Origin: a virus
Taxonomy: Duplodnaviria > Caudoviricetes
Reading direction: 5' to 3' (one strand)
DNA: 59,071 bases
IMG/VR virus record: IMGVR_UViG_3300021961_000108
Coordinates: 1 to 59,071 of that record
Shown: in pieces, positions 23,829 through 59,071 of the stretch
How positions within the stretch are numbered: position 1 is the first letter of the stretch
Layout of the letters: each line of letters opens with the position of its first letter
Made by a program: the position numbers and the translations under genes
The notes under the pieces: model-generated
The model's input: only the letters and a program-made list of their open reading frames with translations
Databases searched by the model: none
What the model was told of the DNA's origin: nothing

Positions 23829-23996
23829 ATGGAATTAAATGCTGGTGATATTCAAAATCTAATGGTAATTATTGATCTCGCTACTCAACGAGGCGTTTTT
23901 AAGGCTGGTGATCTTGTTGCTATTGGTCAATTATATGAAAAACTAAATGCTATAAACAAAACTTTATCCGAAAAAGATAAACCTGATATGGGGTGA
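23829..23996 (+). CDS. Small helical phage protein, 55 aa
   Basis: Not in ORF track. AGGAG SD; MELNAGDIQNLMVIIDLATQRGVFKAGDLVAIGQLYEKLNAINKTLSEKDKPDMG*; fills the gap exactly. Confidence 0.8.
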   Translation: MELNAGDIQNLMVIIDLATQRGVFKAGDLVAIGQLYEKLNAINKTLSEKDKPDMG

Positions 23997-23998
23997 TT

Positions 23999-37300: not shown

Positions 37301-40300
37301 TTTATGGAACTATTAGCGGCACAGTATCATTTGACATTTATAAGACAAGTGGAACAACATACGAAGGCAATCTTATTTCTCCAGTCTTACCAACAGGAAC
37401 TACACAATGGAATGATAATTTTCCAGGATCCCATTCCGTTTATGCTACAACTTTATCATTTAATTTTCAAACAACTGGAATAAATTTATCAAATAATAAC
37501 TGGTCTGAATTATATAGTGAAAACAAAGCGCTATCTATTATTAAAAATAATAGTAGTGATTGGAATACATATGGTTTAAGTAATAGTATTAGCGGATATG
37601 TTAATTCCTATCTTGGATTGATAGAGTTTAATTTAAATACTAGTCTCCCTTTATCCGGACCAAATATTTATTTGTATACCAACCCACCATTTCCAGAAGG
37701 AGATGGACAAAATGTATATTTTAATCCGGATTACTATATTGATGATACCAATGCTACCATAAATATTTTACCATATTCTTATATACAATATCTATACGAT
37801 AATTTTTCTTATATAGATCTTAATACTATAGGATTTACTCAAAAACAATTATGTTATATTAATAATAATGATATGATCTTATTATCATATCCAACAACAT
37901 CAAAATATAGAGTAAATTCTAGTGTTACGCCATCCATAGATAATTTATATTTAGAAAAAAATGATACTATATTTATTAATGATACGTTAGATAATATTGC
38001 TAATATTTATATAGATAATAGTGGTCAAAAACATTATACTCTCACAAATTCGTATTCTGCTGGAACAGGATATGTTTATTTAGCAAGTTCAATCTCTGGT
38101 TTGGGTATTTCTTCTAGCAAATCATTCAATAATACAACTGGAACATATACATATAGTAGAAGTTCTAACTCTGATTATAGTACTATTTTACATGCAACTA
38201 CTTATGCTCCATTAACATCAGCCCCGATCATTGGATGTGTTCCTAATGAGCCCCCACACTATAGTCCAACGTGCTTGTATATTGTACCAACAGGACACGA
38301 ATTTATATTTACTCTTAATAGTGGAATTATTCCTAGTGGATCAGACTATGCCGATAATCTTGCATGGACATCATTTAATAGCAACTCTTTGATTGCTACA
38401 TCGTCTGTTATTTTACCACTTGGTCAAGATAGTATTAATTTACCACCTTTATTAATTCCAGAAGCTAGTATATATAGTAGTGGAATTAATGCTGTAAGAT
38501 GTAATGCCTCGATATTTGATTTTCGTTTAGATAATTTAAGATTGTCTAATACATACTACAATATATGGTATAGTGGATATAGTTCAGAAGCTAATACTGG
38601 TACTAATTCTATATATAATAATTTACCTGCTATTTTAGTTAGTGGAGATGTTAATCGATTCTATTTGGCAGTTACTGGAACCGGCGACTGCACTTTTGCT
38701 TATAAGGTATTAACAACTTTAGATAGTAATAATCAAAATTATATATCTAATACTTTTAGATCTCAAATTAATAATACTATCCCTACTATAGATAATATTG
38801 GAAACAAAATTATAAGGTGTTCTGACTGGGGATTATTGTCTAATCCTAATTGGTATGGTTCGGTAGATGTTAGTAATATTTCAGATTTAGATTTTAGTGT
38901 ATCATTACCACTATCATTAAACAATGATTTTATTAAAATTTTATCTACCAATACCTCTTCCACTGGTGTTTCTATTATCGGTTCTGGCACAGGATATCTA
39001 TCACCAGCCGATACTGGATTATGGACATCTTATGGTTTATCAGGGTTAAATAATATTTATGGGGATATTATATTATATCTAAAAGCTAGAGATAATTATA
39101 AGTATACTAATTTTAGTGGAATATTAAGTACTGGAATACCCAGCGATAATACAATCTATAGCAGAGGACTATTAGTTACAGAAATATATCCAGAAATTGT
39201 TTGTAATATATACTCATCAAATGGACAAAATACAGGGGTTTATTCTGTATCATTATCTAATAAGCAGGATTATCATACATTAACAGTTACTTGTCCTAGC
39301 TATCTAGATTATTTTAGAATACTATCATCCAATAAAACTCTAGATATTCATAATAATTTAAATATATCTTTTAATCTATTAGATAACAGTAATAGTGGTA
39401 TTGTATCTGGTATATTTTTACCCAATACTCAAAGAAATAAATATATAGTAAATAAACCATATAGTAAAATGTACAATGTTAGTAATGACACTTTTACTGT
39501 TGCTGTATTAAGTGGATATATGCCATCTGGTCTTCCAAATTCTGGACCAGTTATTCTTAATATTCCAAAAATATATGATCTTTTACATACTAGTCAGATT
39601 CCGTCCTATCATACAGAATCTCGTGGATCTTTTGATTTTAGATCTACCAGTAGTATTCTATCTAATGGATTATATACAATTGAAAGTTTTGATGAATATA
39701 GTATGTATTTATATGATTTTGCTAGAGTATTTGTTACCGGCTCTGACTATGGAACAGGAACTCTACAATACAATAATATTGGTTATAATATTACAGATGA
39801 TAAATTTAGTTTATGGGGTAAAAATTTTGCTGGAGACACTATTCTACATCCTTGGAGAGATGTACCAACATTTATATCCGATATTGCTGGATCGTGCGAA
39901 TCTGGTCGTTTATGTATTAGATTTTCTGGAATACCCAACTATTTTCAACTGAATGATAGTTTTTGGGTTGATGTAATACCTAATATTTATCCTCAATCTA
40001 CTAATTTAGTATATGCTAATGGATATTATGTAACAGGATTAAGTGGAGTCAATGATTCTACAATTTATATAAAGTGTCCTAGTGGAGTTCATTCTGGTAT
40101 AGTTCTTGGTATGAATACTTTTGATGCGTTTAATTATGTTCCGCTTAATTCATATATTACCACTTTTATAAGTGGAGAAGTTATTAGATTGAATAATAAT
40201 AATATTGGAGTACCACCAGTTTTCTACAATAATGTCCATGCTGGAACACTAAATAATCCATACTTATTTAGTTTTAGTAGAGAAACTATTGCTCAAAATA

Positions 40301-43300
40301 CTGAAAGTAATAATTTAAGAGAAGCTTGGAGAAATTTTATATCGGGTAGTTACACAATCTATAAAGATGAGGTTGCTCCAACAGTAGTTAGTATATTAAC
40401 CAGAATTCCACCATTTTATTATGATGCTTCTCATCAATATTATTCTGCTTGGAACACAACTCAAGCAACTAGAGGCGTTAATGTTTGGAGAAATACTGGT
40501 TCGACCGGAATATCAATGATGATTACCGGCACACAAAATATTCAAACAGACAAAAATCCTAATTATGGATATAGATTTGTTAGTACAACACCGTCATTTA
40601 GTTTTGAACCAAGTATAACAGGATACAGCTTATCAGGTAATACCATACATTCTACTCGAAGCGGTAATTTTAGATTTGCTCTTGATGATCTTAATAAGTA
40701 TTTATCTGTTAGCTCTAATAGTGGATTATATAGACCAACAGCTGGTTCTGGAAGATTAAGCTCTACTGTTGTATTTCCAGCAGCTGCTGATTGGACTATT
40801 AATAGCAGTAAAAGTGAAACCGTAAATATAATAGCTACAGATATAGATAATTTTAAATTATTAGGCGTTGATCTTATTAATCATAATAATATACAAACCT
40901 CATTAATTAGTTCTGGTAATTATAATTATATTGCTAGTGGATTAGCTCAAAATAGTGGTATTACTTTACGTTTTGGCTTGTGTGGCGGCGCAGGAGTGGC
41001 TGACCATAGACCAGAAATACAAGTATATGGATTAGAATCTAGTTATTCTTATTCTTCTAAGCACATTTATGGCATTCCTACTGGTAATCAAGGACTACTA
41101 AATTATAGTGAACAAATTAGTCCATATTCAAATATATGGTATATAGATCTATATATTAATGAGTTAAATAATATATCTTCTTTTTCATACTTATTTAAAG
41201 ACATATTATCATCAAGAGTTAGTGGAACAATATTAAATATTAGTGGATTGCCACCAAGTCCTTATATTAACAATTTTACAACTACAACATATTCTAATGG
41301 AACTAATCCATGGGTAGTATCATTTGATATTGAAAATGTTAGTAGTGGAACAAGCATAGGAATAAGCGGAGGCAGTGGAAATAATGTACTAATAATTAGT
41401 AGTGGACTAGCTTATAATACTTATTTATCTAAATGGCAAGCTTATGCTCTTGGTTCTACTCCATCAACTAATACAGTGTATAATACTGTTCCATTGGCTA
41501 TAACTGGTGCAATTACAATTCCATATACAGGAAATATTAAAGTAACTGGTACCAATGCCTCATATGCGCCACGCATTACAAATGTAGTAGATACGGTAAA
41601 ATTTAGAAATACTGGACTTGATCCGATTACATTATATTTTAATTACCAAAAAGAAGTTGGAGAGACTACAAATCCAACTATTCAATTAACAAATTATCCA
41701 ACAGGAGCAACAGTAAATTCCGTAAAGATCAACGACCCCGAACTTTCTGCACTAAATCAAGCGACAAATAAAGAATTATGGAGAATTACTATTAGCAACA
41801 TTGGAGTTACTGGCTATACATTAAATGGTATGGTTTCATTATCTCCATATACAGATAATTTTTCTACTAATATAATATCTTACGATCCATTTGTAATAGA
41901 TGCTGTTCTTGTTCCTGATCCCATAACTTTTGCTGGCCGAAATTGGCAAATTAACATATCTACTCTTGGTGGCGGAGGACCTTCTTATTTACCATATATT
42001 CAATTATTTAATGCTCCATCTATGTATGGTACTGGTACTACGGCGTACGATTACAATGTTGGTGGATGGGACATATCATTAACTGGAAACTTAGATACTT
42101 TGAATAGATATAATATGGTGACAGGACTATATAATATCAATTTATATATTCAAGATATTATTAGTTCAGTTCCAACCACAACCACTATGACATATAAATG
42201 TCCAGCAAATATTTTTGATCTTAGAAAATGGTATGCAGTAAAAGATAAATCATATCCTATAAATCTAGAAATACCTAATTGCTGTCGTTCAGAATACAAC
42301 ACTCTCTCAAACAATTTCACTATAAATCCTGATCTGCCAACTTCGGAAACATTATCATATAAAAAATATAATCCATTTACTAATACATATGAATTACGAT
42401 ATACCGGAGATCCTCCTATCGAAAAGTGGAATACAAGATTAGAGATATCTAATATAGGTAGTGAATATAGTTATGATGATCCAAACTCTAATACTTTTAC
42501 TATTGATGTCAAAGGTTTAGATACAGATGTTATTAGTGTTATTGGTTTATTAAAAATGAAAGAATTAGAGGTTATTAGTACTGATTATCCTCCATTAGAA
42601 ATTATTAATGTTAATCCTGAAGAAGATAAAACTAAAGAGTTAATACAAGGAACAGATTGGACACTTAGTTTTAGTGTTGTAGGAGGACTATCTAACCTTA
42701 ACTATCCTCCAACAATACTATTGAGTGGACTTCCGTCAGTATGTAGTGGTTATTTTCCAGATATTGATCCTGATGGTCCTCCATGCTTATCTAGTTATAG
42801 TTTTAATAATACAACCCTAAGATGGTCATTTAATTTTACTGGATCAAGTAATTGTAACACAGGATTATATAATATCAGCATAAAAGCTTTTGATTCTACT
42901 GGAGAAGATACTGCTTTTACAAATATACTATATACTCCATTGGGTATTCCTGGACCAAAAGTACAGTCAGCATTTCAAACTAATTCATTATTTCCTAACT
43001 GTTTGCCATTTTCTGGAGATATTAAGATTATTTCTCCAGAAAGAGGATTACCATGTCCATATACCACAGGTATTAAAGGATGGGAATTGATAGGATCATT
43101 ACCTAATGGATTAGCACTAGTTTCTAATAATATTGTTGGCTTACATCCTAGTTTATATACTGGCACAGGAACTATCTCCATAACCGGTACAGCAACAGCA
43201 TTTCCAGAAAATAATGTTTTCCCTCCATTTATTATAAGAGCAACAGGATTAAACGATAAGACAGCGCAAGCAACGGTAACTATGAATACCGCAGGAGTTA

Positions 43301-45294
43301 CTCCGATTGATGACAATCCATTATCTTTGACTATTTATTTCCCTTATTCTGGATATATTAGTCCAACATACAAACAAAATGTTAATGATACTCCTCATGT
43401 TAAATCAGAAAGTCAGCATGTTTATAAGCCATATCCAAGTACTGGAGCAATGATTTGTAGAAGTACTTTGTCAGAAAATAATTGTCCAACTTACTATACT
43501 GGCACATATACATTAATGACTCCAACTGGTAGCGGAGTCAATATATCTTTTGGCAGATCACCTATTAGTTCTTCAAACGTATTTGCTGTATTTGATAATA
43601 ATTTAACTAATAATAAAAATGGTATATATCAATTATTCGATATTACAAATCAAGAATTTTTTGATAATATTACACAACAATTATATTATGAATATTATGG
43701 TAAGCTATCTACATTATGCAATCCAGCACCAACTTTATTCTCCGGCTTAACTCCAGAATCGGGCTTTATTAAGCTTATGCCATTTGAAGTAACATCTATG
43801 AATGTCCCAGCCAGTCTGGATCTCGGAGGATTACCAAAAGGAACTATAGGATGTAATACATGTCTTCTTGGAAATGGAGAATTACAACAAAATGAGGGAG
43901 CAACACTTAAATTAATTGGTAAAATGAGACCATCAATGGCTTTTAGTATTACAGGTAATTCTTACCCCCTACAAAATTATGATAGTAATAATTCGTGTTC
44001 TGCTGGTGGATTTGGTTTTAGTATTCCCAATCTTACTTTGGTAAGTGGTGTTGAAACACAATTGTTACCAGGTTTTCCTTCTGGAGAACAAGAAGAAATT
44101 TGCTTTACTAATTGTTATGAAACTGGAGTTGCATATATTAGTGGTGTCGTTGTACCAACACCCATTTTAGAAATTACAGATGCTCCAGTTCCTCCCTACA
44201 TTTATAACGGTCAGTCAAATTCATTTGCATTAAGGTGCTCTTTTGGAGATACCACTGTTAAGAGAAATAGAAAAGAAAACTATAGAGAATTAGAAATCAA
44301 ATATTATATTAAACATTTAAATAGCGGATTATATTGGGATAATACAAACTCATTATTCACAGCAACAAAAACATTTATAAGCAAAAATACAACAGCAGAT
44401 CCTGCTAGTCCACAATCAATAGGATATACGGCTCCAATTATCAGCAGTGGTGCAATATATGAATTATTTATGGAAAGAAAAGCTGATGATTTTCCGACTG
44501 TAAATATTAACTCGTATCCATATATTAGTAATTCTATTTATTGGATTCATAGGGCTAATGATGATTCCACCCCAGCTGTATCTAGCACATATCCTGGATT
44601 CATGCCAATAAATTATGGCAGTGGATTAATTATACAAACAGGAGTTCCGTTCTATATTGCTGCACAAATTCTTGGTGGTAGTGGTTCATATCAACCTTCT
44701 ATATCTGGCTATCTAACATTAGCAAATCAGACAGGTGAAGTATTAGATATTAATGGCTTATCACATAATTTAGCAACAAGTATTAGTGGTTCTAATATAA
44801 CAGATGGCTTATGGAATATTCAAATTACTGGAAATATTACTGGACTATTTAATTCGTATCTTGTTGATTATGATCTTAGAATGGGTATTACAGAAAATAT
44901 ATTGGCCCCATTCCCCAAATCAACCACGAACATTATTCCTGTTACACTGGTTAAGCCGTTAGAACTAACTATTACTAGTGCTGGTGGCACAACATTGTCT
45001 GTAAATATTGGTACACAATGGGTGCTTTCGTTTAATATATCTGGAGGAAATAGACCACCAAGATATCATACTAATACTAGCCAGTGGGCTATTGATAATG
45101 AGCCGATTATAGAAATTAATGGAGATATTTGTAACTATACTATACAAAATAAAATATATAATGTCAATAATAATACTTGGTCATTTACATTGAGATCCAC
45201 AGCAATTATAAATAGCAATACTGTGTTAAACCTAGTTTATATTGATAAATTACAATACTCTATATCTGAAACAATAAACGTTCAAGTGGTATAA
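34375..45294 (+). CDS. Giant virion fibre/adhesin protein, 3639 aa
   Basis: Short collagen repeat (GPKGDKGDIGPVGPAGQNG), GTYTKV.V..KGR and LDADLLDG fibre motifs, head-like NSLAxG repeats, C-terminal Ig/cadherin-like repeats. Confidence 0.8.
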   Translation: MTIINILEDSNNPTKYLIVTSQDGTSETLVTTNVLVTTSSNNRAELIEITKIPGPKGDKGDIGPVGPAGQNGVVFDILPINSGGTNNSSFITDKVIYYDGTKLSSSDLDINSIQTNIISNIYSGTGLSKVQSGDTVTLNANLGDGLTIVGENQIGIDTNIVITKSTLDLSDTSFYQGILPINYGGTNNTFFGLNSLVYYDGSKLATYPIPTGQIVHSGQKISVVAGSGLVGGGDITLPNGSVVIKLQNSDDIIVFDDHIELSNIISSGTYTKVYVNNKGRVIGGTNLTLSDIIAAVGGTPWTSANDGDGSGLDADLLDGQQSSYYRDASNITGVLSTNLLPDIVTAGTASKVQFNAKGLIVDSGVLQYLDITDALGYVPFDKGGGQILNDVEILGNITAESGFFTDNSITLGQPYNTNDIRGIRFRYNDVPAKYAVLAYYPAENIFRISSESPGTSGVVLTLERADSKYVAVTGEQQISGIKTFLNSIQLYARLIVRNPTPELPPFDIGSNDKLVQFLNSDLLDDQHGWYYRNAINLTGTLNSDVIIPHIQSRATVSYSNINSPDDGYLEYFPIFHRPSSGHPMVLRSSYVYQTGYNIHMDDASLSIGQNTLDDNITNSLVIGTSNSGSALAQNSLAVGYENTISGTNSLALNYRSSAGKNNSIALGKYGETWVDDQISIGGFKNFNVGQDGIARKDSHGQLSYIPLKYHGEAAGYVNILTFTLPENKTLEYEAELLFTKQKNTGVASFQITPGIVKNYGYRDPARGYAAYKKATMATHHTIKEIYNNSQERTYGLSVNLVTDHDDISRTNNLEVTAAPYQYQSLDIQSYANPVVIYPKSDFSTKLKATRDSSDLGSTYRKNFVVKLEPYDRSPFNTGAPITLGRNINHITECLYYRPSGSKNGIIKFPNHGLSNQCPFDSSIYIGTGNIKLLARTDQIFDFGMPKVRNTGLYTKSFFRENTTGNLIYRTYIDKNIYGTISGTVSFDIYKTSGTTYEGNLISPVLPTGTTQWNDNFPGSHSVYATTLSFNFQTTGINLSNNNWSELYSENKALSIIKNNSSDWNTYGLSNSISGYVNSYLGLIEFNLNTSLPLSGPNIYLYTNPPFPEGDGQNVYFNPDYYIDDTNATINILPYSYIQYLYDNFSYIDLNTIGFTQKQLCYINNNDMILLSYPTTSKYRVNSSVTPSIDNLYLEKNDTIFINDTLDNIANIYIDNSGQKHYTLTNSYSAGTGYVYLASSISGLGISSSKSFNNTTGTYTYSRSSNSDYSTILHATTYAPLTSAPIIGCVPNEPPHYSPTCLYIVPTGHEFIFTLNSGIIPSGSDYADNLAWTSFNSNSLIATSSVILPLGQDSINLPPLLIPEASIYSSGINAVRCNASIFDFRLDNLRLSNTYYNIWYSGYSSEANTGTNSIYNNLPAILVSGDVNRFYLAVTGTGDCTFAYKVLTTLDSNNQNYISNTFRSQINNTIPTIDNIGNKIIRCSDWGLLSNPNWYGSVDVSNISDLDFSVSLPLSLNNDFIKILSTNTSSTGVSIIGSGTGYLSPADTGLWTSYGLSGLNNIYGDIILYLKARDNYKYTNFSGILSTGIPSDNTIYSRGLLVTEIYPEIVCNIYSSNGQNTGVYSVSLSNKQDYHTLTVTCPSYLDYFRILSSNKTLDIHNNLNISFNLLDNSNSGIVSGIFLPNTQRNKYIVNKPYSKMYNVSNDTFTVAVLSGYMPSGLPNSGPVILNIPKIYDLLHTSQIPSYHTESRGSFDFRSTSSILSNGLYTIESFDEYSMYLYDFARVFVTGSDYGTGTLQYNNIGYNITDDKFSLWGKNFAGDTILHPWRDVPTFISDIAGSCESGRLCIRFSGIPNYFQLNDSFWVDVIPNIYPQSTNLVYANGYYVTGLSGVNDSTIYIKCPSGVHSGIVLGMNTFDAFNYVPLNSYITTFISGEVIRLNNNNIGVPPVFYNNVHAGTLNNPYLFSFSRETIAQNTESNNLREAWRNFISGSYTIYKDEVAPTVVSILTRIPPFYYDASHQYYSAWNTTQATRGVNVWRNTGSTGISMMITGTQNIQTDKNPNYGYRFVSTTPSFSFEPSITGYSLSGNTIHSTRSGNFRFALDDLNKYLSVSSNSGLYRPTAGSGRLSSTVVFPAAADWTINSSKSETVNIIATDIDNFKLLGVDLINHNNIQTSLISSGNYNYIASGLAQNSGITLRFGLCGGAGVADHRPEIQVYGLESSYSYSSKHIYGIPTGNQGLLNYSEQISPYSNIWYIDLYINELNNISSFSYLFKDILSSRVSGTILNISGLPPSPYINNFTTTTYSNGTNPWVVSFDIENVSSGTSIGISGGSGNNVLIISSGLAYNTYLSKWQAYALGSTPSTNTVYNTVPLAITGAITIPYTGNIKVTGTNASYAPRITNVVDTVKFRNTGLDPITLYFNYQKEVGETTNPTIQLTNYPTGATVNSVKINDPELSALNQATNKELWRITISNIGVTGYTLNGMVSLSPYTDNFSTNIISYDPFVIDAVLVPDPITFAGRNWQINISTLGGGGPSYLPYIQLFNAPSMYGTGTTAYDYNVGGWDISLTGNLDTLNRYNMVTGLYNINLYIQDIISSVPTTTTMTYKCPANIFDLRKWYAVKDKSYPINLEIPNCCRSEYNTLSNNFTINPDLPTSETLSYKKYNPFTNTYELRYTGDPPIEKWNTRLEISNIGSEYSYDDPNSNTFTIDVKGLDTDVISVIGLLKMKELEVISTDYPPLEIINVNPEEDKTKELIQGTDWTLSFSVVGGLSNLNYPPTILLSGLPSVCSGYFPDIDPDGPPCLSSYSFNNTTLRWSFNFTGSSNCNTGLYNISIKAFDSTGEDTAFTNILYTPLGIPGPKVQSAFQTNSLFPNCLPFSGDIKIISPERGLPCPYTTGIKGWELIGSLPNGLALVSNNIVGLHPSLYTGTGTISITGTATAFPENNVFPPFIIRATGLNDKTAQATVTMNTAGVTPIDDNPLSLTIYFPYSGYISPTYKQNVNDTPHVKSESQHVYKPYPSTGAMICRSTLSENNCPTYYTGTYTLMTPTGSGVNISFGRSPISSSNVFAVFDNNLTNNKNGIYQLFDITNQEFFDNITQQLYYEYYGKLSTLCNPAPTLFSGLTPESGFIKLMPFEVTSMNVPASLDLGGLPKGTIGCNTCLLGNGELQQNEGATLKLIGKMRPSMAFSITGNSYPLQNYDSNNSCSAGGFGFSIPNLTLVSGVETQLLPGFPSGEQEEICFTNCYETGVAYISGVVVPTPILEITDAPVPPYIYNGQSNSFALRCSFGDTTVKRNRKENYRELEIKYYIKHLNSGLYWDNTNSLFTATKTFISKNTTADPASPQSIGYTAPIISSGAIYELFMERKADDFPTVNINSYPYISNSIYWIHRANDDSTPAVSSTYPGFMPINYGSGLIIQTGVPFYIAAQILGGSGSYQPSISGYLTLANQTGEVLDINGLSHNLATSISGSNITDGLWNIQITGNITGLFNSYLVDYDLRMGITENILAPFPKSTTNIIPVTLVKPLELTITSAGGTTLSVNIGTQWVLSFNISGGNRPPRYHTNTSQWAIDNEPIIEINGDICNYTIQNKIYNVNNNTWSFTLRSTAIINSNTVLNLVYIDKLQYSISETINVQVV

Positions 45295-45969: not shown

Positions 45970-46329
45970 ATGGCAGACCCTAATATTGTTGATACAACTA
46001 TTGTTAAAGGCAAAACAGCGGTTACCGATAATATACCGTCTACTGGTATTACATTATTAACAAATAGTACTAGTAATTCTGTATATAAAATTGGAACATT
46101 AGTTGTTAGTAATATTGATGGAAGTTCACCATATGATCTTAGCGTTAATTTTGTAAGAAATAGTACGTCGTATAAATTAGTTAGTACAGTAGCTATTCCA
46201 CAAGATTCTAGCTTAGTAGTTATATCACGAGATACTAGTATATATTTACAAGAAAATGATTCTTTAAACTTAGTTGCAAGTACAAGTAATAAATTACAGG
46301 CTGTTTGTAGCTATGAGGAAATTTTATGA
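45970..46329 (+). CDS. Conserved-looking small phage structural protein
   Basis: AGGAG SD; MADPNIV...VSNIDG...IYLQENDSL...CSYEEI. Confidence 0.7.
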   Translation: MADPNIVDTTIVKGKTAVTDNIPSTGITLLTNSTSNSVYKIGTLVVSNIDGSSPYDLSVNFVRNSTSYKLVSTVAIPQDSSLVVISRDTSIYLQENDSLNLVASTSNKLQAVCSYEEIL

Positions 46330-47336
46330 GATATAGTAATGGTGGGTATATAGGTTACGCACCAACTCCTAGCACATCTGGAGAATTAGATGGTATATGG
46401 AGATATACTGATGTTACTAAAAATATTAGGAACAATAATTGGTATGTTAGTACAATACCATCAAATGCTAGAATTTCTCCTTCAAGTGTTACCGAAACCA
46501 CAGGTACTTCTATTACATTAACTTGCTTATTCGATAATGATCTTTCAGGATTCGTAGAAACTTTTCAGTGGCAAACATCATTAAATAATAGTATTTGGAC
46601 AAATATATCTGGACAAAATAATAGTACTCTTGTATTTACGATGGCTTCTGGAGATAATAGTACTTATCGTAGATGTAAAATAGATAGAGGATTTAAAAGT
46701 GTTTTTGCCACATCAGCTGAAATATATGTAGCATTAGATACTATTACTATTAGTGATCAACCAGATAATTTAACACTATATGCTGGAGATACTGGTTCTT
46801 TTACAGTAATAGCTAGTGTTGATAGTGAAGCAACAATAAATTACCAATGGCAAGTTTCTACGAATGGTGGTTCGTCTTGGTCTAACGCTCCAGGATCATC
46901 AACATCAGCATCATATTCTGTTACTCCTCCATATAGTAATAATGGATATTTATATAGATGTTATTTAACAGCAACCGGTGCCGCCCCAGCAACATCAGAT
47001 TCTGCTACACTAACTGTTACTAATAATACTATTACAATAATGTCCCAACCCATGAGTCAAGATTGTACTTATGGTGATCCAACATTTACTGTTAGCGCAA
47101 TGATAGACTATGGGTCTTTGTCGTATGCTTGGTATAAATCAACCTCTAGTGGTGGTACTTTCTCATTGATTACTAGTAGTGATGCTGGGTTTACTGGATA
47201 TAGTACAAGTTCATTAACTGTTGATTGTGAAACTCAAACGTCAAATTGGTATTTAAAGTGTAGAGTATATTGGAGTATTTTAGAAGACTATACAAATGTT
47301 GTTTTATATACTGATAGTGGTGGAGGAGGGTACTAA
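46326..47336 (+). CDS. Ig-like domain protein (about 3 repeats)
   Basis: I.SxQP...FTV.A...YQWQ.S..G..W...YRC repeats. Confidence 0.8.
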   Translation: MRYSNGGYIGYAPTPSTSGELDGIWRYTDVTKNIRNNNWYVSTIPSNARISPSSVTETTGTSITLTCLFDNDLSGFVETFQWQTSLNNSIWTNISGQNNSTLVFTMASGDNSTYRRCKIDRGFKSVFATSAEIYVALDTITISDQPDNLTLYAGDTGSFTVIASVDSEATINYQWQVSTNGGSSWSNAPGSSTSASYSVTPPYSNNGYLYRCYLTATGAAPATSDSATLTVTNNTITIMSQPMSQDCTYGDPTFTVSAMIDYGSLSYAWYKSTSSGGTFSLITSSDAGFTGYSTSSLTVDCETQTSNWYLKCRVYWSILEDYTNVVLYTDSGGGGY

Positions 47337-51696: not shown

Positions 51697-51999
51697 ATGA
51701 ATCATAATATTATAATGGACTTGTTGGAAAAGAGAATGACCACTATAATGATAGGAGCACTTGCTAGATTCGAAGAAAACTTTGATTATTTGTGGGACAA
51801 AGACAAAGCTAATGCTGATTACTTTTTCTCTTTATGGCAAAAGGCCAGACAAGAAATTTTGGATTACGGGAATAATCAAATAAGATTAGCGGAAAAGGAT
51901 TTGGAAAAGTTACAAATAAATAAACCTACTAAATATAAATATCAATATAGATTTGATATGAGGAGAAATGAAAATGAGCGCAAAGACAAAGACTTTTAA
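51697..51999 (+). CDS. Hypothetical protein, 100 aa
   Basis: Tiles with neighbours; TTIMIGALARFEENF. Confidence 0.7.
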   Translation: MNHNIIMDLLEKRMTTIMIGALARFEENFDYLWDKDKANADYFFSLWQKARQEILDYGNNQIRLAEKDLEKLQINKPTKYKYQYRFDMRRNENERKDKDF

Positions 52000-52852
52000 G
52001 ACAGAAGTTGATGGAAAAGAAGTTGAATTCTTAGTACGAACACCGTCATTAGCAGAACAACGAGAAGGACAAAAGGTATATAATCAGTCCTTTAGCGATG
52101 CGGTAAAAGCTAAAGCTATCGTTAGGGCGCGCATGGATGACTTGCTAGAAGAACAAGGCTTGTGGGATGCTACAAAACAAAAGAAGCTCACCGATCTGCA
52201 ACAGGTTATATTGGATAACGAAAGAATTCTTGCAAAGGGTGGTATTCCATTAAAAAAGGCTAAAGAATTAGCTTTAGAGATGAAAGAAACTCGTGTTAAG
52301 ATACGAGAGCTTATTGCCGATAAAACATCACTAGATAATCATAGTGCAGAAGGGCAGGCCGATAATGCCCGATTCAACTATCTAGTAAGTGTGTGTTTGG
52401 TGTATAATGAAACTAAACAACCATATTTTAAGAGTTTGGAAGATTATTTATCACGATCAAATGAGCCAGTTTCTATTTTAGCAGCACAGAATTTGGCTAA
52501 TATGCTATATGGTCTTGATAATGATTATGAGAAAAATTTACCAGAAAATAAGTTCTTGAAAAAATTTAAGTTTATTGATGATGGTTTAAGACTAATAGAT
52601 GAAAAAGGACGATTAGTTGATGCGGACGGAAGACTGGTGGATGAGAATGGTAGGTATATTAATGAAGCCGGTGAATTTATTGATAGATACGGTAATAGAG
52701 TAGACGACAAGGGAGATTATATAGTTGATCACCAACCATTCCTTGACGATGATGGAAACCCCATCTCGGAAGAAAAAAATGAAGCCCCACCAGTATCACT
52801 ATCAGAAAGCAAGCCACAAACTGTTGAAGAACAAGTCGAGACCACTGTTTGA
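51974..52852 (+). CDS. Probable tail assembly chaperone-like protein with 7-aa DxxG repeats
   Basis: AGGAG SD (start 51968 or 51974); directly before TMP; IDEKGRLVDADGRLVDENGRYINEAGEFIDRYGNRVDDKG. Confidence 0.6.
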   Translation: MSAKTKTFKTEVDGKEVEFLVRTPSLAEQREGQKVYNQSFSDAVKAKAIVRARMDDLLEEQGLWDATKQKKLTDLQQVILDNERILAKGGIPLKKAKELALEMKETRVKIRELIADKTSLDNHSAEGQADNARFNYLVSVCLVYNETKQPYFKSLEDYLSRSNEPVSILAAQNLANMLYGLDNDYEKNLPENKFLKKFKFIDDGLRLIDEKGRLVDADGRLVDENGRYINEAGEFIDRYGNRVDDKGDYIVDHQPFLDDDGNPISEEKNEAPPVSLSESKPQTVEEQVETTV

Positions 52853-52940: not shown

Positions 52941-55900
52941 ATGGCAGCATTCAATCTTACTGCACAACTTAATTTGGTTGGACCAACAAATGTTAGACAA
53001 ATTGTTGGAGATATTAGAAAACAATTAGGCACAATAAAGGGTAATATTGATCTTGGTATTGATCCTAAAGCTATAAGAGCTATTGCTCAATTACAAAGTC
53101 AAGCATCTCAAATAAGTTCATCTTTAAATAATGTTTCTAGATCAGCATCAGTAGCTAGTGGCTCTATTAACGACCTTAATAATGCTGCTAGTAAAAATCA
53201 ACTAGGATCAGTTGCTCAATCAGCAGCTAAAGCAGCAAGTGCTGCTAGTGATTTGGGTAAAGAAAGTTCACGATCATCAAAAGATGTTAAAGTTTTAAGT
53301 AACGAATTGGCTGAGTTCGGTAGACAAAGTGGTTTGGCTATTCGTCGTTTTGCCGCGTTTAGTTTAGTATCAGGCGTAATGTATAAGTTGAATAGTGCTA
53401 TTAATCAAGCATTATCACAATATATAGACTTTGATAGAGAATTAGTTAGAGTATCACAAGTTACTGGTAAAAGTGTTGCCGAGTTAGGGAGTTTAGTTAA
53501 TGAAATTAGTTCGTTAGCAACTAGTACCGGTGTTGCTTCAAAAGAATTAATTCAAGTATCAAGTACATTAGCACAGGCTGGTTTAAGTGCTAGAGATGCT
53601 GAGAAAGCATTAAAAGCATTGGCTCTGAGTGCTAATGCTCCATCATTTGATAATTTAAATGATACTGTGGAAGGCAGTATCGCACTCATGAGACAGTTTG
53701 GTATTAGTGCGGATGATCTAGAAAGTGCATTAGGTAGTGTTAATGCTGTGGCAGCTGCATTTGCTGTTGAAGCCAGCGACTTAATTGCTGCTATTCAACG
53801 TACTGGTGGTGTGTTTGCAAGTGCTAGTAGAGGAGTTAGTGAAGGTACTGACGCATTAAATGAATTTATAGCTGTATTTACAAGTGTTCGTGCTACAACT
53901 CGTGAAAGCGCTGAAACTATTGCTACTGGCTTAAGAACAATTTTTACCAGAATTCAGAGAGAATCTACTATTACTGCTCTTAGAGAGTTGGGTGTTGAAT
54001 TGCGCGATGTTGAAGGAAAATTCGTTGGGCCTTATGAGGCTGTTAGAAGACTTAGCGAAGGATTAGGACAATTAGATCCAAGATCTCAAACATTTGCTTC
54101 TATTGTTGAAGAACTTGGTGGTTTCCGACAAATTGGTAAAGTTATTCCTCTTATTCAACAATTTGCTACAGCGGAAGCAGCACTACAAGTTGCTATGAAA
54201 GGTGGAGATTCACTAGCAGAGGCTAATAGACAAGCTCAACAAGCATTAGCCGTACAATTAGCAAAAACTAGAGAAGAATTTGTTGCATTAGTTAGAGATT
54301 TTGCTAATAATACTGCTTTTAGAAGCTTTCTAACAACAACTATTGGTATAACCAAAAGTATACTAAGTTTAGCACGAGCAGGACGATCATTATTTCCACT
54401 ATTAACACTAATGGGAGGATTTAAAGCATTTTCTGCTGTGACTCAGTTTGCTGGCGGCTTTGCTCAAGGAGTAAGACCGTCTGGAGGCAGAGGAGGCGGC
54501 GGAGACGAAGAAGGCATAGATAATAAGGCTCTATCTAGAACTATGGGAAGAAGTGTATCTCGTAGTATTGGTAAGGGTTTGGGAGAAATGTTGAGTGGTT
54601 CAAAAACTGAAAGACAAGCAGAATCATTAGAGCAAATCGTTAGTATATTAAGAAGTAATGCACAAGCTTTTAATACTGATGTTAGTAGTTTATCTCAACC
54701 AATAACATCATTGTCTTCTTTATTAAATGATAATAATTCATTGTTATCTGCTAATACTAGCGGATTAAATAATGTATATGCTGCTTTAGTTAATTTAGAA
54801 GCAGCTATTAGTAGCAAAAGTTTTACTGGTCCAACCACTGCTAGAGGTGGTGGAAGAATACTGGGTTTCTCGAAAGGTGGAACTGTTCCTGGTAGTGGCA
54901 AAGGAGATAAAGTTCCGGCATTATTAGAACCCGGCGAAGTTGTAATGAGCAATAACGCTGTTAATAGATATGGAAGAGGTAATTTGGTAAGAATGAATAA
55001 GTATGCTACAGGTGGCAAGATACAAAAACGACTTAGTGATTTAGATCTTAATTTAAGCAAAGAAGTTTCTGGTATAGATTTAGCACAAACAGATATTAAA
55101 CTTAAAGAAATACAATTATTTCCAAATGATTTTGCTGAAATGCAAAAAACAATTATGGAAACCAAAAAAGAAACAACAAAAATTATAGAAAAATACCCAG
55201 GAAAAGAAACCGAACAATTTACTAAAAAATATAGAGGTGGTCAATGGTTGCTAGGAAAAGCCTTTCAGGAAATTGTTGAAAAAAAATATAATCTTAAAGG
55301 AGTAAGGCCATCTGGATTTGGAACATCCACAGAAAACTTTGATGATATCTTACAGGAACATTTTGCTCCATTGGATTATACAACAGGAGATGCAAAATTT
55401 GTTAAAAATCTAAATAGTATAACAAATGAAGAAATATTAAGTAAAAGATTGAGATATGAGTTTAAAGAGAATAAATTACGTCCAGATCCAAGTACAAAAA
55501 TAGAATCGTTTAATTTACCTGATACATCATTATACTATCCAGCAAAAGGCATTAAAGAAAGATTTGAAAGATATATTCAATCAACAGGAGAGTCTTCTAA
55601 AATTTTAGGAGGATATTTTAATCTTGGTGGATTAGTTCAAAGATTTATGGCCGGAGGAGAAGCTGAAGAAACAACACCTTGGGGAGATACGGCTACTGTA
55701 CCAGAAATTCTAAGACTTTTAACCTTTGATGGAGCTGCTAAGATCGGTAGAGTAGCAAATCCTAGAGAACTACTTAAAAGGAAAAAACCAACAGAAGATG
55801 AAAAAGCTAAGATAAAAGCTATCAGAGATGAAGCAACAAAAACATATAATAGAAGAATAGGAGCGGCCAAAGGAGTACAAACTAGATTAACTGGACAAGG

Positions 55901-58900
55901 ACTAAAATTTGCTGCGGTAGGAATGTTTGGAGATACTTTTCCAGACGAAACATATGATGCTGAAGGAACTAAAGGAACAAGAAAAGTATTGATCACAGCA
56001 GCATTGATGGACAGAGCATTAGCAGAACAACTAGATGCTGATTTTGGAGGTGGTATAGAATCAACAGCCCAACAAGCTGCTGAAAAAGTTATGGTTGGTA
56101 ATATTACTAAAGGGTTATTAGGAGGTAAACAAGCAGAATTTGATTTTGATAGAACATTAGCAGTTGGTGCTGATGATATAGCTAGCTTGAAAGATTTTAG
56201 AGATCCTGCTATTGTTCAAGAAAAATTAAAAAATGCAAGTTTAACAAGATTAGGTAGAGCACTAGTAGATTTAGTTAAAGCTCATCCAGAAATACTTCCT
56301 AATATGAGGATAGTAACAGCACGATCTCAGTCCACAGTACCACTAGTCCAAAGATGGCTAGCAGACAAAGGACTAGGATTGTCTGATTCTCAATTTGTGG
56401 GAGTTGGCGGCGATTCTCAAATAGTTTCCGAAAGCGATATTCCGGCATTAAAAGCTGCTCAATTAAGAGCAGGATCATTATTTGTTGATGATAGCGGCCC
56501 GAATATTAGAGCTGCTGAAGCTAGTGGTAAAAACATAGAAACATATCAGTATGGGGCGCAATTAACTACCCCTAATCCTGTTTTAGAGTCTAGTGTTAAG
56601 GGTATATTTTTTGAAAAAATGATACAAAATCTTGGAGGCCCCGGAGCAATTGCCGGACTAGGATTTGATTATCCCAAAGGTTTAGGACCTGCTGCTAAAT
56701 ATTTTGGTATTGATCCTGATATTCCTACTGATGCTAAAAGAACCATAGTTGGCGCAGGAACTATTAAAGATAATGTTAGAACTTATCTTAAAGCAATGGG
56801 ATATGCTGGTGGTGGAATGATTATGGGCAAAGGAAGAGGAAAGAAAGGGGCAAAGGGAGCCAGAGATGTTATAGAGCCTATTAGTAGTGAAACATATTTA
56901 AAATGGGCTCAGGGCATATATGATGAATATGATAAAGATCCTTCGTTAGTAATGACTACTGATGAACTCGGAATAAGAATGCCCCCAGAAATAGCATTAG
57001 CTAATAAACTATTAACACAACATGCGTTACAAACTGGAGGAGCAGGATTAAGCGTTGGGACAAGATTTGTTACAACACCGGAACAATATATAGACGACGC
57101 ATTAAGACCTTATCTTGTGCCAAATCCTAATAATCCTAATGAATTAGGTTTTTATGAAGATGTTATTGCTAAGTTTGGTAGGGCTAAAGCAGTATCAGCG
57201 GCAGCAACAAAAAAACTTGGTAAAGCAGAAGCATTGAAAGCTGTTGAAGCTAGAATGGAAACGTACACTGGTGCCGAAAATGCAATTACTGAATTTAAAA
57301 AGAGTGGAGTTCTAAATGTTAGTTCATCAATAATGGACTATATAATTAAATCAGTAAATAATCCTGATAATTTACCATTAGATAGTAAAGGTATCAATAG
57401 CATAAAGAAAAAATTAACAAAAAGTAATGTTGATGCTTTTAATGCTTTAGTTGGATCCCAAAAAACTCCTGTTAGTGTACAGGGCCAAAGAACAAAATTA
57501 GGAGAAGTTTTTAATGCTATATTAGAAACTTATGGTAGTGATGTATCTGATTTAGAAGTTGATAATATAACTAGAGCTATGGGAGAAAAATTAAATATTG
57601 GTGGACTAGTACAAAAGTTTGCTTTTGGTGGAAAAGCAGATGGTCCAGGATTTGAAGAAGTTCGAAAACAAATAATGGATAAATATCCAGAGGTTGATTT
57701 TAGAATTAGTAAGCGCAAAAAAGGAAGAGGTTTTGGATATAATTTATTAGGAGCTTTAAAAACAGATGGTGGATTATTAGGATCGAAAGGACTACAATTT
57801 GAACAGCCAAGTAATCTACAAAAACTAATTGAAGTTTCTGATAAAATGGCAACAAGCTTGATAAATCCACAAGAACTAGCGGTTGGTGGATTAGCAGATG
57901 CTACATCAGAAATGGCAAGTTTGATGGGTGGTCTTTATGGTAATAGAAAATCATCAGAAGCAGTCCCGGCTAAAAAACAAAAAGATTTTGGTAGAATAGG
58001 ATTAAATGAAGATGGTAATTTGATTAGTGCTGGTTATTACAAGAATGATCAAAGATCAGGATACGTTCAAGCTTATAAGATGAAAGATAATTTATATTAT
58101 GTAGGATTATCTAAAGCTACTAGTGGTTATGGCCCAAGATTATACGATGTGGTAATGGAAGCTGTTAGTGAAAAAGGGGCTATGTTAACTTCTGATAGAG
58201 GTATGGTTAGCGCAGAAGCTCAAAAGGTATGGCAATATTATTTTAAGAATAGAGGAGATGTTAAGAAAACGCCGTTGGAACCAGAGAACTGGACAAAAAA
58301 TCAATCATTAATTGATCCTAAACTTTATGGACGCAAAGAAACTTGGCCTCCATCAACTGATCCTGCTTGGGTATTACAAAGTGGATATAGTAAAAGTCCA
58401 AGTTTAATTAATGATCCTAATGCAGTTGTTAGAGGAAATAAAAAATCAACAGTATCTTCTGGACAAATGGCTCTGCAGTATTTCCAAAGAGCAAATGGCG
58501 GCAGACTAGGTTTTGCTACTGGTGGAAGTGTTGATGAGAATATAAAAAAGATTTCGGCAATGAGAATGAGGGAGATCGATATTGGAATGAATCTTAGAAG
58601 ACAACTTCCAGCAATGTCTCAAGAAGAATGGCAAAAAGAATGGGAAAAAATAAGATCAGCTCCTGGAGGCTCTCGACAATTAGCAGAGGAATTATTTGGT
58701 TCAGAAGAGGCGGCGAATAGAATCATTACTGAACAAGCTTATGCCAGAGTAAAAAACCCTCATAAGAACGGTGGTTTAATTAACAGATTCGTTGATGGCG
58801 GAACTGTCCCAGCATTAGTTAGTAATGGGGAAGCTTATGTTCCGCCCAAACTAGCTAAAAAGATCGGTTACGGAACTCTTAGCAAGATGAATCAGGCTGA

Positions 58901-59071
58901 TAAGAATGGTATGGGGCGATTTAGTAGTGGTGGAATTAGCGTATTTAAAGGACCCGGTAGCGGGACTAGCGATAGCATACCAACAAGTTTACCAGTTGGT
59001 AGTTTTATACTGAGAGAAAAGGCTACTAAAGCATTAGGCTTAAATAAAGGAGGAATGGTACAAAGATTTGC
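52941..59071 (+). CDS. Tape measure protein (TP901-like core) with multiple cargo domains; 3' truncated, >2040 aa
   Basis: Missing from ORF track (no stop in window). Manual translation MAAFNLTAQLNLVGP...; core FDRELVRVSQVTG, LAQAGL, RESAETIATGLRTIFTRI, GGFRQ; GGTVPGSGKGDKVPALLEPGEVV motif; frame stays open to 59071. Confidence 0.9.
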   Translation, partial: MAAFNLTAQLNLVGPTNVRQIVGDIRKQLGTIKGNIDLGIDPKAIRAIAQLQSQASQISSSLNNVSRSASVASGSINDLNNAASKNQLGSVAQSAAKAASAASDLGKESSRSSKDVKVLSNELAEFGRQSGLAIRRFAAFSLVSGVMYKLNSAINQALSQYIDFDRELVRVSQVTGKSVAELGSLVNEISSLATSTGVASKELIQVSSTLAQAGLSARDAEKALKALALSANAPSFDNLNDTVEGSIALMRQFGISADDLESALGSVNAVAAAFAVEASDLIAAIQRTGGVFASASRGVSEGTDALNEFIAVFTSVRATTRESAETIATGLRTIFTRIQRESTITALRELGVELRDVEGKFVGPYEAVRRLSEGLGQLDPRSQTFASIVEELGGFRQIGKVIPLIQQFATAEAALQVAMKGGDSLAEANRQAQQALAVQLAKTREEFVALVRDFANNTAFRSFLTTTIGITKSILSLARAGRSLFPLLTLMGGFKAFSAVTQFAGGFAQGVRPSGGRGGGGDEEGIDNKALSRTMGRSVSRSIGKGLGEMLSGSKTERQAESLEQIVSILRSNAQAFNTDVSSLSQPITSLSSLLNDNNSLLSANTSGLNNVYAALVNLEAAISSKSFTGPTTARGGGRILGFSKGGTVPGSGKGDKVPALLEPGEVVMSNNAVNRYGRGNLVRMNKYATGGKIQKRLSDLDLNLSKEVSGIDLAQTDIKLKEIQLFPNDFAEMQKTIMETKKETTKIIEKYPGKETEQFTKKYRGGQWLLGKAFQEIVEKKYNLKGVRPSGFGTSTENFDDILQEHFAPLDYTTGDAKFVKNLNSITNEEILSKRLRYEFKENKLRPDPSTKIESFNLPDTSLYYPAKGIKERFERYIQSTGESSKILGGYFNLGGLVQRFMAGGEAEETTPWGDTATVPEILRLLTFDGAAKIGRVANPRELLKRKKPTEDEKAKIKAIRDEATKTYNRRIGAAKGVQTRLTGQGLKFAAVGMFGDTFPDETYDAEGTKGTRKVLITAALMDRALAEQLDADFGGGIESTAQQAAEKVMVGNITKGLLGGKQAEFDFDRTLAVGADDIASLKDFRDPAIVQEKLKNASLTRLGRALVDLVKAHPEILPNMRIVTARSQSTVPLVQRWLADKGLGLSDSQFVGVGGDSQIVSESDIPALKAAQLRAGSLFVDDSGPNIRAAEASGKNIETYQYGAQLTTPNPVLESSVKGIFFEKMIQNLGGPGAIAGLGFDYPKGLGPAAKYFGIDPDIPTDAKRTIVGAGTIKDNVRTYLKAMGYAGGGMIMGKGRGKKGAKGARDVIEPISSETYLKWAQGIYDEYDKDPSLVMTTDELGIRMPPEIALANKLLTQHALQTGGAGLSVGTRFVTTPEQYIDDALRPYLVPNPNNPNELGFYEDVIAKFGRAKAVSAAATKKLGKAEALKAVEARMETYTGAENAITEFKKSGVLNVSSSIMDYIIKSVNNPDNLPLDSKGINSIKKKLTKSNVDAFNALVGSQKTPVSVQGQRTKLGEVFNAILETYGSDVSDLEVDNITRAMGEKLNIGGLVQKFAFGGKADGPGFEEVRKQIMDKYPEVDFRISKRKKGRGFGYNLLGALKTDGGLLGSKGLQFEQPSNLQKLIEVSDKMATSLINPQELAVGGLADATSEMASLMGGLYGNRKSSEAVPAKKQKDFGRIGLNEDGNLISAGYYKNDQRSGYVQAYKMKDNLYYVGLSKATSGYGPRLYDVVMEAVSEKGAMLTSDRGMVSAEAQKVWQYYFKNRGDVKKTPLEPENWTKNQSLIDPKLYGRKETWPPSTDPAWVLQSGYSKSPSLINDPNAVVRGNKKSTVSSGQMALQYFQRANGGRLGFATGGSVDENIKKISAMRMREIDIGMNLRRQLPAMSQEEWQKEWEKIRSAPGGSRQLAEELFGSEEAANRIITEQAYARVKNPHKNGGLINRFVDGGTVPALVSNGEAYVPPKLAKKIGYGTLSKMNQADKNGMGRFSSGGISVFKGPGSGTSDSIPTSLPVGSFILREKATKALGLNKGGMVQRF

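Follow-up and report, generated by a model that had tools for sequence, protein, structure and literature searches.

A predicted HAD phosphatase as an optional insertion in the giant tape measure protein of an uncultured phage lineage

The last gene of a 59,071-base IMG/VR virus contig (completeness of 39% according to CheckV; the whole contig is called the window in the following) encodes a giant tape measure protein, whose frame stays open over 2,043 codons and is cut off by the window border. Here, a domain of the HAD type is described within this chain. On balance, residues ~1045–1205 appear to form a small-cap HAD phosphomonoesterase, which would be directed toward nucleotides and delivered with the virion and which represents an optional in-frame insertion. 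We infer its activity, its storage form in the virion, its delivery, the compartment in which it acts and its substrate from the motifs, the predicted fold and the relatives described below. A finished phosphatase would probably reach the host with the infecting phage. Judged by P0077 (4,291 aa), which is the closest N-terminal relative among the matches listed and shares 94% identity over residues 1–640, the full tape measure chain is probably longer than 4,000 residues.

Conservation of the catalytic motifs

An initial annotation of the window had described four HAD motifs inside the tape measure. These motifs lie in one open frame, in the order and at the places given there (Table 1). With residues 1044–1233 as query, 1.84 billion cluster representatives (50%-identity clusters) were searched in full with HMMER, which yielded 75 proteins at E <= 1e-3, 42 of them at E <= 1e-10. 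All but three of these proteins are 1,897 to 7,872 residues long. The query and the 75 matched stretches were combined in one conservation alignment of 76 rows, from which none was dropped.

Within motif I, both aspartates D1068 and D1070 are present in 76/76 rows and T1072 in 75/76. Position 1126 of motif II is occupied by threonine or serine throughout (76/76), as is R1128 by arginine (76/76). The lysine of motif III, K1171, is invariant (76/76), and motif IV displays D1183 in 75/76 rows with a glutamate in the remaining one, D1184 in 76/76 and N1188 in 65/76. Furthermore, Y1204 is found in all 76 rows of the same alignment. A subset of 26 rows, called A1, shares 25–54% identity with the query, apart from one row with 81%. 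The catalytic residues are near-invariant despite an identity of 25–54%, which therefore argues for selection for catalysis and not for bulk. This is the pattern of a domain kept as an active enzyme, as far as conservation can tell.

The tape measure was also part of the initial annotation, and this label is correct for the N-terminal quarter, since TIGR01760 (tape_meas_TP901; residues 152–438, E 2.6e-26, 92.5 bits with a cut-off of 28.8) and PF10145 (residues 188–393, E 2.7e-24, 86.6 bits with a cut-off of 33.2) both match there above their cut-offs and PHROG tape measure families cover residues ~45–509. No Pfam family was matched in the rest of the seen chain outside the tape measure domain, and a Kyte-Doolittle scan of the seen part revealed no clear membrane segments.

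Predicted fold of the domain

An AlphaFold2 model of residues 1044–1233 was built on the 26-row alignment A1. The structure prediction, which had been proposed as a check in the initial annotation, yielded a Rossmann-like three-layer HAD fold (pLDDT 88.2, pTM 0.81). The model displays an N-terminal helix and then five strands alternating with helices. T1126 is located at the end of the strand comprising model residues 79–83, which is the place of motif II. The cap is small and consists of only two short helices (model residues 40–54), reaching from the flap to the first core helix. With the motifs in place and a small cap in the model, the description as an intact small-cap HAD domain stands.

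Comparison of the model with the PDB using Foldseek resulted in 23 matches at E <= 1e-3, with the class B acid phosphatase AphA (1z5g; E 1.1e-5, 20% identity) at the top, followed by other HADs. Using VIA-align, 157 of the 1000 chains compared reached Z >= 8, and HAD enzymes make up almost the whole of the 50 best rows listed. The best one is the phosphatase domain of T4 Pnkp (5uj0_B; Z 12.2, 126 aligned residues, root mean square deviation 3.1), followed by Pnkp1 (4xrp; Z 11.7), the plant protein VSP (4fyp; Z 11.4) and AphA (2b82; Z 11.3, 146 aligned residues, 21% identity), and class C acid phosphatases are found at Z ~10. The nearest solved folds in VIA-align, the T4 Pnkp 3'-phosphatase and the nucleotide-acting acid phosphatases, agree with the kind of enzyme that had been named before. 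Matches in BFVD comprise phage polynucleotide kinases, phosphatases, nucleotidases and HADs fused to XkdF-like proteins. The look-alikes in the ESM Atlas are small viral HADs, and 16 of the 30 named matches belong to the T5 deoxynucleoside monophosphatase (dNMPase) set, which serves as a lead only. Since the structural neighbors act on nucleotides or nucleic-acid ends, a nucleotide-directed enzyme is favored.

An optional insertion in giant tape measures

Most of the HAD-bearing relatives (66/75) start with the same tape measure module at residues 1–6. The remaining nine of the 75 do not contain this start module and may be fragments. N-terminal relatives were identified by a word-indexed search with residues 1–640, in which only proteins of 3,577–5,000 aa were considered and 2,512 candidates were scored. 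This revealed 349 relatives at E <= 1e-10, and the HAD status was scored for the best 120 of these 349. Using our own hidden Markov model (HMM), the HAD was detected in 57 of these 120 best relatives, with intact motifs in 56 of the 57.

None of the 63 HAD-less relatives aligns to residues 1051–1200 of this protein. Elsewhere, two of the 63 align to residues 951–1050 and about 8–11 to residues 1201–1300. The HAD-less proteins P0165 and P0155 contain both flanks, with 16–23 residues between them in comparison to ~165 residues here. Because these two proteins join the same flanks, the HAD is, on the basis of sequence comparison, an optional domain that is cleanly inserted in frame into a conserved region. 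In the giant relatives P0151 and P0169, a precomputed label indicates PF03496 (ADP-ribosyltransferase exoenzyme family), and therefore other enzyme cassettes seem to occur in the same scaffold.

Proposed mechanism and substrates

Since tails are assembled with the tape measure inside, the enzyme would be present in the virion before infection. At DNA ejection, the tape measure would leave the tail. In the usual orientation of tape measures the N-proximal part is next to the DNA and exits last. Being positioned in the N-proximal quarter, the HAD would sit beside the DNA and be released last. Once freed, the domain would fold or refold and take up Mg2+.

In HAD chemistry, an aspartate acts as nucleophile on the phosphate, a second aspartate protonates the leaving group and an acidic pair holds Mg2+. 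Accordingly assigned, the phosphate would be removed here via an aspartyl-phosphate on D1068 with D1070 as acid/base, while T1126, K1171 and R1128 would grip the phosphate and D1183/D1184 would hold the metal. The likeliest substrates would be nucleotide-type phosphomonoesters. These could be 5'-(deoxy)nucleoside monophosphates (5'-(d)NMPs), on which T5 Dmp acts, or the 3'-phosphate ends processed by T4 Pnkp, and their hydrolysis would precede all phage gene expression. HADs cleave phosphomonoesters and cyclic-nucleotide signals are phosphodiesters, therefore the latter are unlikely substrates. Of the interpretation given in the initial annotation, the small-cap HAD domain, its nearest folds and its place in a tape measure polypeptide are thus supported, and injection, an action on nucleotide signals or broken ends and a role in anti-defense are possibilities.

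A wider picture can be drawn only tentatively and should be taken as a possibility that is rather doubtful. Here, the tape measures of this giant type, with lengths from 2,000 to almost 7,900 residues, would be tail-borne effector carriers, in which a conserved N-terminal ruler domain is followed by modules with enzyme domains swapped by in-frame recombination. The HAD would pass the tail unfolded, refold beside the DNA and strip phosphates from nucleotides or nucleic-acid ends used by host immunity or metabolism before phage expression.

Weighing of the evidence and alternative explanations

Several results weigh against a virion-delivered, nucleotide-directed phosphatase. On the level of families, the HAD segment matched no Pfam family at E <= 10 and in NCBIfam only HAD-IA at E 0.17, and neither PF25109 (HAD_PNKP) nor PF03767 (Acid_phosphat_B) had a match in the contig at E <= 10. 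Profile comparison of A1 by hhalign gave probabilities of 2.3% for T4 PseT and 2.0% for T5 Dmp, and the 76-row HMM in hmmsearch scored T4 PseT with 0.7 bits and T5 Dmp with 7.4 bits, all of which is insignificant. The hhalign alignment to T4 PseT comprises motif IV only, and the weak alignment to T5 Dmp (7.4 bits) spans motif I to 'TAR'. Among 50,697 GenBank phage records no homolog was detected by tblastn at E <= 1e-3, and thus no cultured relative; relaxing the same search to E <= 10 gave only chance-level matches. With respect to the surroundings, a Walker A scan and Pfam revealed no kinase or ligase partner in the part seen, and the ten upstream open reading frames (ORFs) matched no tail-tube or chaperone family in Pfam and PHROGs. 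Lastly, the lumen of the tail tube would hardly offer enough room for three or more copies of a folded 16-kDa domain, and therefore the domain would be stored unfolded or elsewhere, and the few copies of a tape measure per virion would achieve little against bulk nucleotide pools.

Further searches describe how the domain relates to known families. When the 26 rows of A1 were compared with Pfam, no family was matched by more than three rows (HAD by two, Hydrolase by one), and in PHROGs the HAD segment matched only phrog_415, a polynucleotide kinase, at E 0.13. Searching PDB sequences with the A1 profile placed AphA first (E 0.068), with an alignment through all four motifs. In this alignment 'TAR' is paired with 'TGR' and 'fvDDdlkni' with 'FYGDSDNDI', that is DD..N vs GD..D in motif IV. 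As judged by these comparisons, the domain is a separate sequence family claimed by none of the curated ones searched. So, the domain is expected to work like the S/T-x-R branch of the small-cap HADs, which includes Pnkp, the class B/C acid phosphatases and perhaps Dmp. A match to 'Pizza' designer proteins in a phmmer search of the PDB (E 2.5e-8) was rejected as an artefact of ~7-bit matches added over identical repeats.

An end-healing function like that of Pnkp, which we regard as unlikely, would be directed at RNA or DNA ends bearing 3'-phosphates or 2',3'-cyclic phosphates, which the domain would remove. Examples would be tRNAs cut by host anticodon nucleases, for which the enzyme would perform the first repair step or alter the sealing by a host ligase. 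The two best structural matches (T4 Pnkp and Pnkp1), the small cap, which is typical of HADs acting on macromolecules, and the phrog_415 match are in line with this. Moreover, a Walker A motif is present 117–160 residues after the HAD in at least 16 of 120 HAD-bearing relatives (e.g., P0004, P0078, and P0036). However, the 2,043 residues seen contain no Walker A motif. Among the relatives, this motif is not enriched in those with the HAD and is in fact less frequent there (58 of 120 HAD-bearing vs 45 of 63 HAD-less relatives). Neither a PF25109 match nor a ligase was recognized in the Pfam scan, and the comparison with T4 PseT mentioned above is restricted to motif IV.

Quite unlikely in our view is a phosphatase of the envelope or periplasm, acting on periplasmic nucleotides or on phosphorylated envelope components and aiding the passage of the tape measure. 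AphA is the top match in Foldseek as well as in the sequence profile, with the highest identity (20–23%) and the longest span including the N-terminal helix, and the class C acid phosphatases among the fold matches would also fit. In addition, tape measures are regarded as the first component to enter the envelope (PMC10770324). This reading is opposed by the missing PF03767 match, by the DD..N of motif IV in place of the GD..D of AphA, and by the position of the HAD in the N-proximal quarter instead of the tip end, given the general orientation of tape measures. Furthermore, no HADs are known that act on the phosphates of lipid A or peptidoglycan.

A further role would be that of a protein phosphatase, in which a capless HAD acts on a host protein, e.g., of a kinase-based or phosphorelay defense, or on a regulator. 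The small cap and the HAD domain of the Legionella effector Lem4 among the Foldseek matches (E 6.2e-4) point in this direction, and few injected copies would suit a low-copy target. Such HADs are absent from the top 50 rows of VIA-align, where nucleotide-acting or small-molecule enzymes are listed instead, and the sequence suggests no target; thus, this role is considered highly improbable.

It is also possible to imagine that the domain is not a delivered enzyme at all, having a role in the virion or its assembly (a spacer, plug or phosphate-binding module) or being processed away before the tail is completed. The cassette is dispensable, as 63 of the 120 best N-terminal relatives do not contain a HAD, and the poor fit of a folded domain in the tail lumen would be explained. 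On the contrary, the catalytic residues are kept at 25–54% overall identity, indicating selection for catalysis, and an optional cassette with an intact active site would resemble accessory effectors. Together with the precedent of P23-45 described below, this renders a purely structural role improbable, and a delivered, nucleotide-directed phosphatase is preferred.

The segment following the HAD

Directly downstream of the HAD, residues 1216–1292 form a segment whose conservation equals that of the active site. In an alignment of 75 rows, in which one relative was omitted for lack of sufficient sequence, G1221 is found in 74/75 rows, position 1225 is occupied by 66 E and 9 Q, and D1243 is present in 74/75. 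Position 1264 is D or E in 75/75, followed by K1266 in 74/75, R1267 in 69/75 and T1268 in 72/75. Near-invariant are thus G, E, D, G-L and P-T-[DE]-x-K-R-T. This segment is also present in HAD-less relatives, where it is joined to the upstream flank.

The arrangement E1225...D1243...[DE]1264-x-K1266 was considered as a PD-(D/E)xK nuclease. This candidate found no support, since the model of the segment alone has a pLDDT of 50.0 and a pTM of 0.25 and contains no sheet. A profile of residues 1216–1292 gave only chance matches against the PDB and no named family in the ESM Atlas. A complex prediction of the HAD (A1 1–165) with the downstream segment (A2 8–95) yielded no answer (score 0.00) and is evidence neither way.

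Architecture of the chain and neighboring genes

The features of the tape measure gene are summarized in Table 1.

Table 1. Features of the giant tape measure gene, with positions in the window.
Feature	Position	Strand	Basis or remark
Giant tape measure gene	52941..59069	+	3' end cut by window, 2,043 aa seen
TP901-type tape measure domain (residues 152–438)	53394..54254	+	TIGR01760, PF10145, PHROG
Upstream flank (residues 896–1050)	55626..56090	+	joined almost directly to downstream flank in P0165, P0155
Putative inserted HAD cassette (residues ~1051–1215), N-terminal helix and HAD core	56091..56585	+	HAD-less comparison, junctions
HAD core, strand 1 to strand 5 (residues 1065–1204)	56133..56552	+	model, fold matches
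Motif I, D1068-F-D1070-R-T1072 ('EFDFDRTL'), predicted nucleophile and acid/base Asp	56142..56156	+	alignment
Motif II, T1126-A-R1128 ('IVTAR')	56316..56324	+	alignment; pairs with 'TGR' of AphA
Motif III, K1171 ('LKAA')	56451..56453	+	alignment, 76/76
Motif IV, D1183-D1184-x3-N1188 ('LFVDD..N')	56487..56504	+	alignment
Downstream segment (residues 1216–1292), ends in GG joint	56586..56816	+	75-row alignment

Successive modules are set apart by two kinds of short joint that recur along the chain, namely 'GG-x-[VI]-Q-[RK]-F' and 'G-x-V-P-A-L-[LV]-x-x-G-E'. They are located at window positions 55626, 57600, 58770, and 59049 (residues 896, 1554, 1944, and 2037, respectively) and also within residues 643–711 and 1957–2030. 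For the copy at 643–711, similarity was detected to phrog_35029 (E 2.7e-12), to Synechococcus phage S-SM2 and to a marine single-cell virus record, the latter with 64% identity over 44 residues. These recurring joints could be processing sites or contacts to the tail tube.

Tail chaperones with a programmed frameshift usually sit directly upstream of the tape measure. Here, two overlapping ORFs (51697–51999 and 51968–52852, + strand) are located directly 5' of the tape measure gene, the second one in the +1 frame; no family match was obtained for either of them. Clear matches among the upstream ORFs were obtained only for 46326–47336, which matches PHROG head/virion-structural families.

A second giant gene of the structural region, an ORF of 3,639 codons (34375–45294, + strand), has no Pfam match at E <= 1e-3. 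Two large proteins (14897–16519 and 16553–20428, + strand) start with an Mtd_N domain (E 1.5e-12 and 1.2e-9, respectively), which is the N-terminus of the Bordetella phage tropism determinant. Based on this domain, both are probably receptor-binding fibers. The 1,286-aa protein encoded at 23993–27853 (+ strand) contains fn3, F5/8 type C, LCCL, and Ig-like domains and is, judged by its domain content, probably a carbohydrate-binding decoration of the virion or a fiber.

Regarding the lineage, 37 related loci are present in IMG/VR on contigs of up to 238 kb. The terminase of the contig shares at best 24–27% identity with siphophage terminases. A scan of bacterial and archaeal genomes with a single protein for a clue to the host yielded zero relatives.

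Comparison with known systems

Tape measures are usually viewed as rulers and channel formers, sometimes with a domain cutting the cell wall. An enzyme carried in a tape measure is known, and a phosphatase at this place was not found in the literature searched, which did not extend to supplements and subscription journals and in which 'HAD' is ambiguous as a word. YomI of SPbeta likewise contains an enzyme domain within a long tape measure. Its tape measure domain is a distant match of this protein (22% identity, E 8e-6), and YomI is annotated as a transglycosylase in some records. Unlike lysin domains of the YomI type, which cut peptidoglycan and have an obvious role in penetration, the phosphatase has no such obvious role.

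A second group of carriers are the polyvalent proteins of phages and conjugative elements. In PMC7824862 these are described as large and multidomain proteins, which are thought to enter with the DNA and contain several enzymes of early conflict. The main text of the study on polyvalent proteins by Iyer et al. (2017; PMC5512222) contains none of the terms 'tape measure', 'phosphatase' or 'haloacid'.

Among the solved HADs, the 3'-phosphatase domain of T4 PseT/Pnkp (5uj0, 1ltq) and Pnkp1 (4xrp) are likewise small-cap HADs of ~140 residues. T4 Pnkp and this HAD have in common the DxDxT, S/T-x-R, K and DD-type motif IV. In contrast to T4 Pnkp, no sequence-profile relation is detectable and no fused kinase is present in the part seen; furthermore, T4 Pnkp is a soluble early enzyme, whereas this HAD is embedded in the tape measure of the virion. 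AphA (1z5g, 2b82), VSP (4fyp), and the class C enzymes (3et4, 2i34) resemble the domain in fold, and AphA is the sole near-significant profile match. AphA differs from it as a secreted stand-alone enzyme, by PF03767, which this HAD does not match, and by its motif IV (GD..D vs DD..N).

T5 Dmp is a pre-early deoxynucleoside monophosphate (dNMP) phosphatase, which is reported to enhance virulence (bioRxiv 10.64898/2026.04.02.716235). Dephosphorylation of dNMPs within the first minutes of infection can thus be of advantage to a phage. Both are HAD-like phosphatases of phages, and Dmp is used at the very start of infection. In contrast, their sequence similarity is insignificant, and Dmp is made from first-step-transfer DNA and not carried by the virion.

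The uncultured lineage described here has tape measures of thousands of residues, and about half of the close relatives carry an optional phosphatase that is predicted to be catalytically intact. If this enzyme is delivered, virion tails would be a route for pre-made effectors, which bears on the survival of the phage in the first minutes of infection, and the tape measure would be a natural scaffold to study how folded enzymes pass through the tail.

The closest published precedent is the RNA polymerase fused to the tape measure of the Thermus phage P23-45 (PMC10770324). There, gp96 is a tape measure of 5,002 residues with an N-terminal virion RNA polymerase, which transcribes the pre-early genes during DNA entry. 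Within the tail tube, the tape measure is assumed to adopt a metastable form, and infection would drive it out into the envelope. According to this account, a tape measure can carry an enzyme acting in the cytoplasm, too. As in gp96, whose enzyme acts in the cytoplasm and is proposed to be delivered along with the tape measure and to be active during DNA entry, a giant tape measure here bears an N-proximal enzyme. In contrast to gp96, the enzyme is a different one and would be an optional insertion ~1,050 residues into the chain, following the TP901-type domain.

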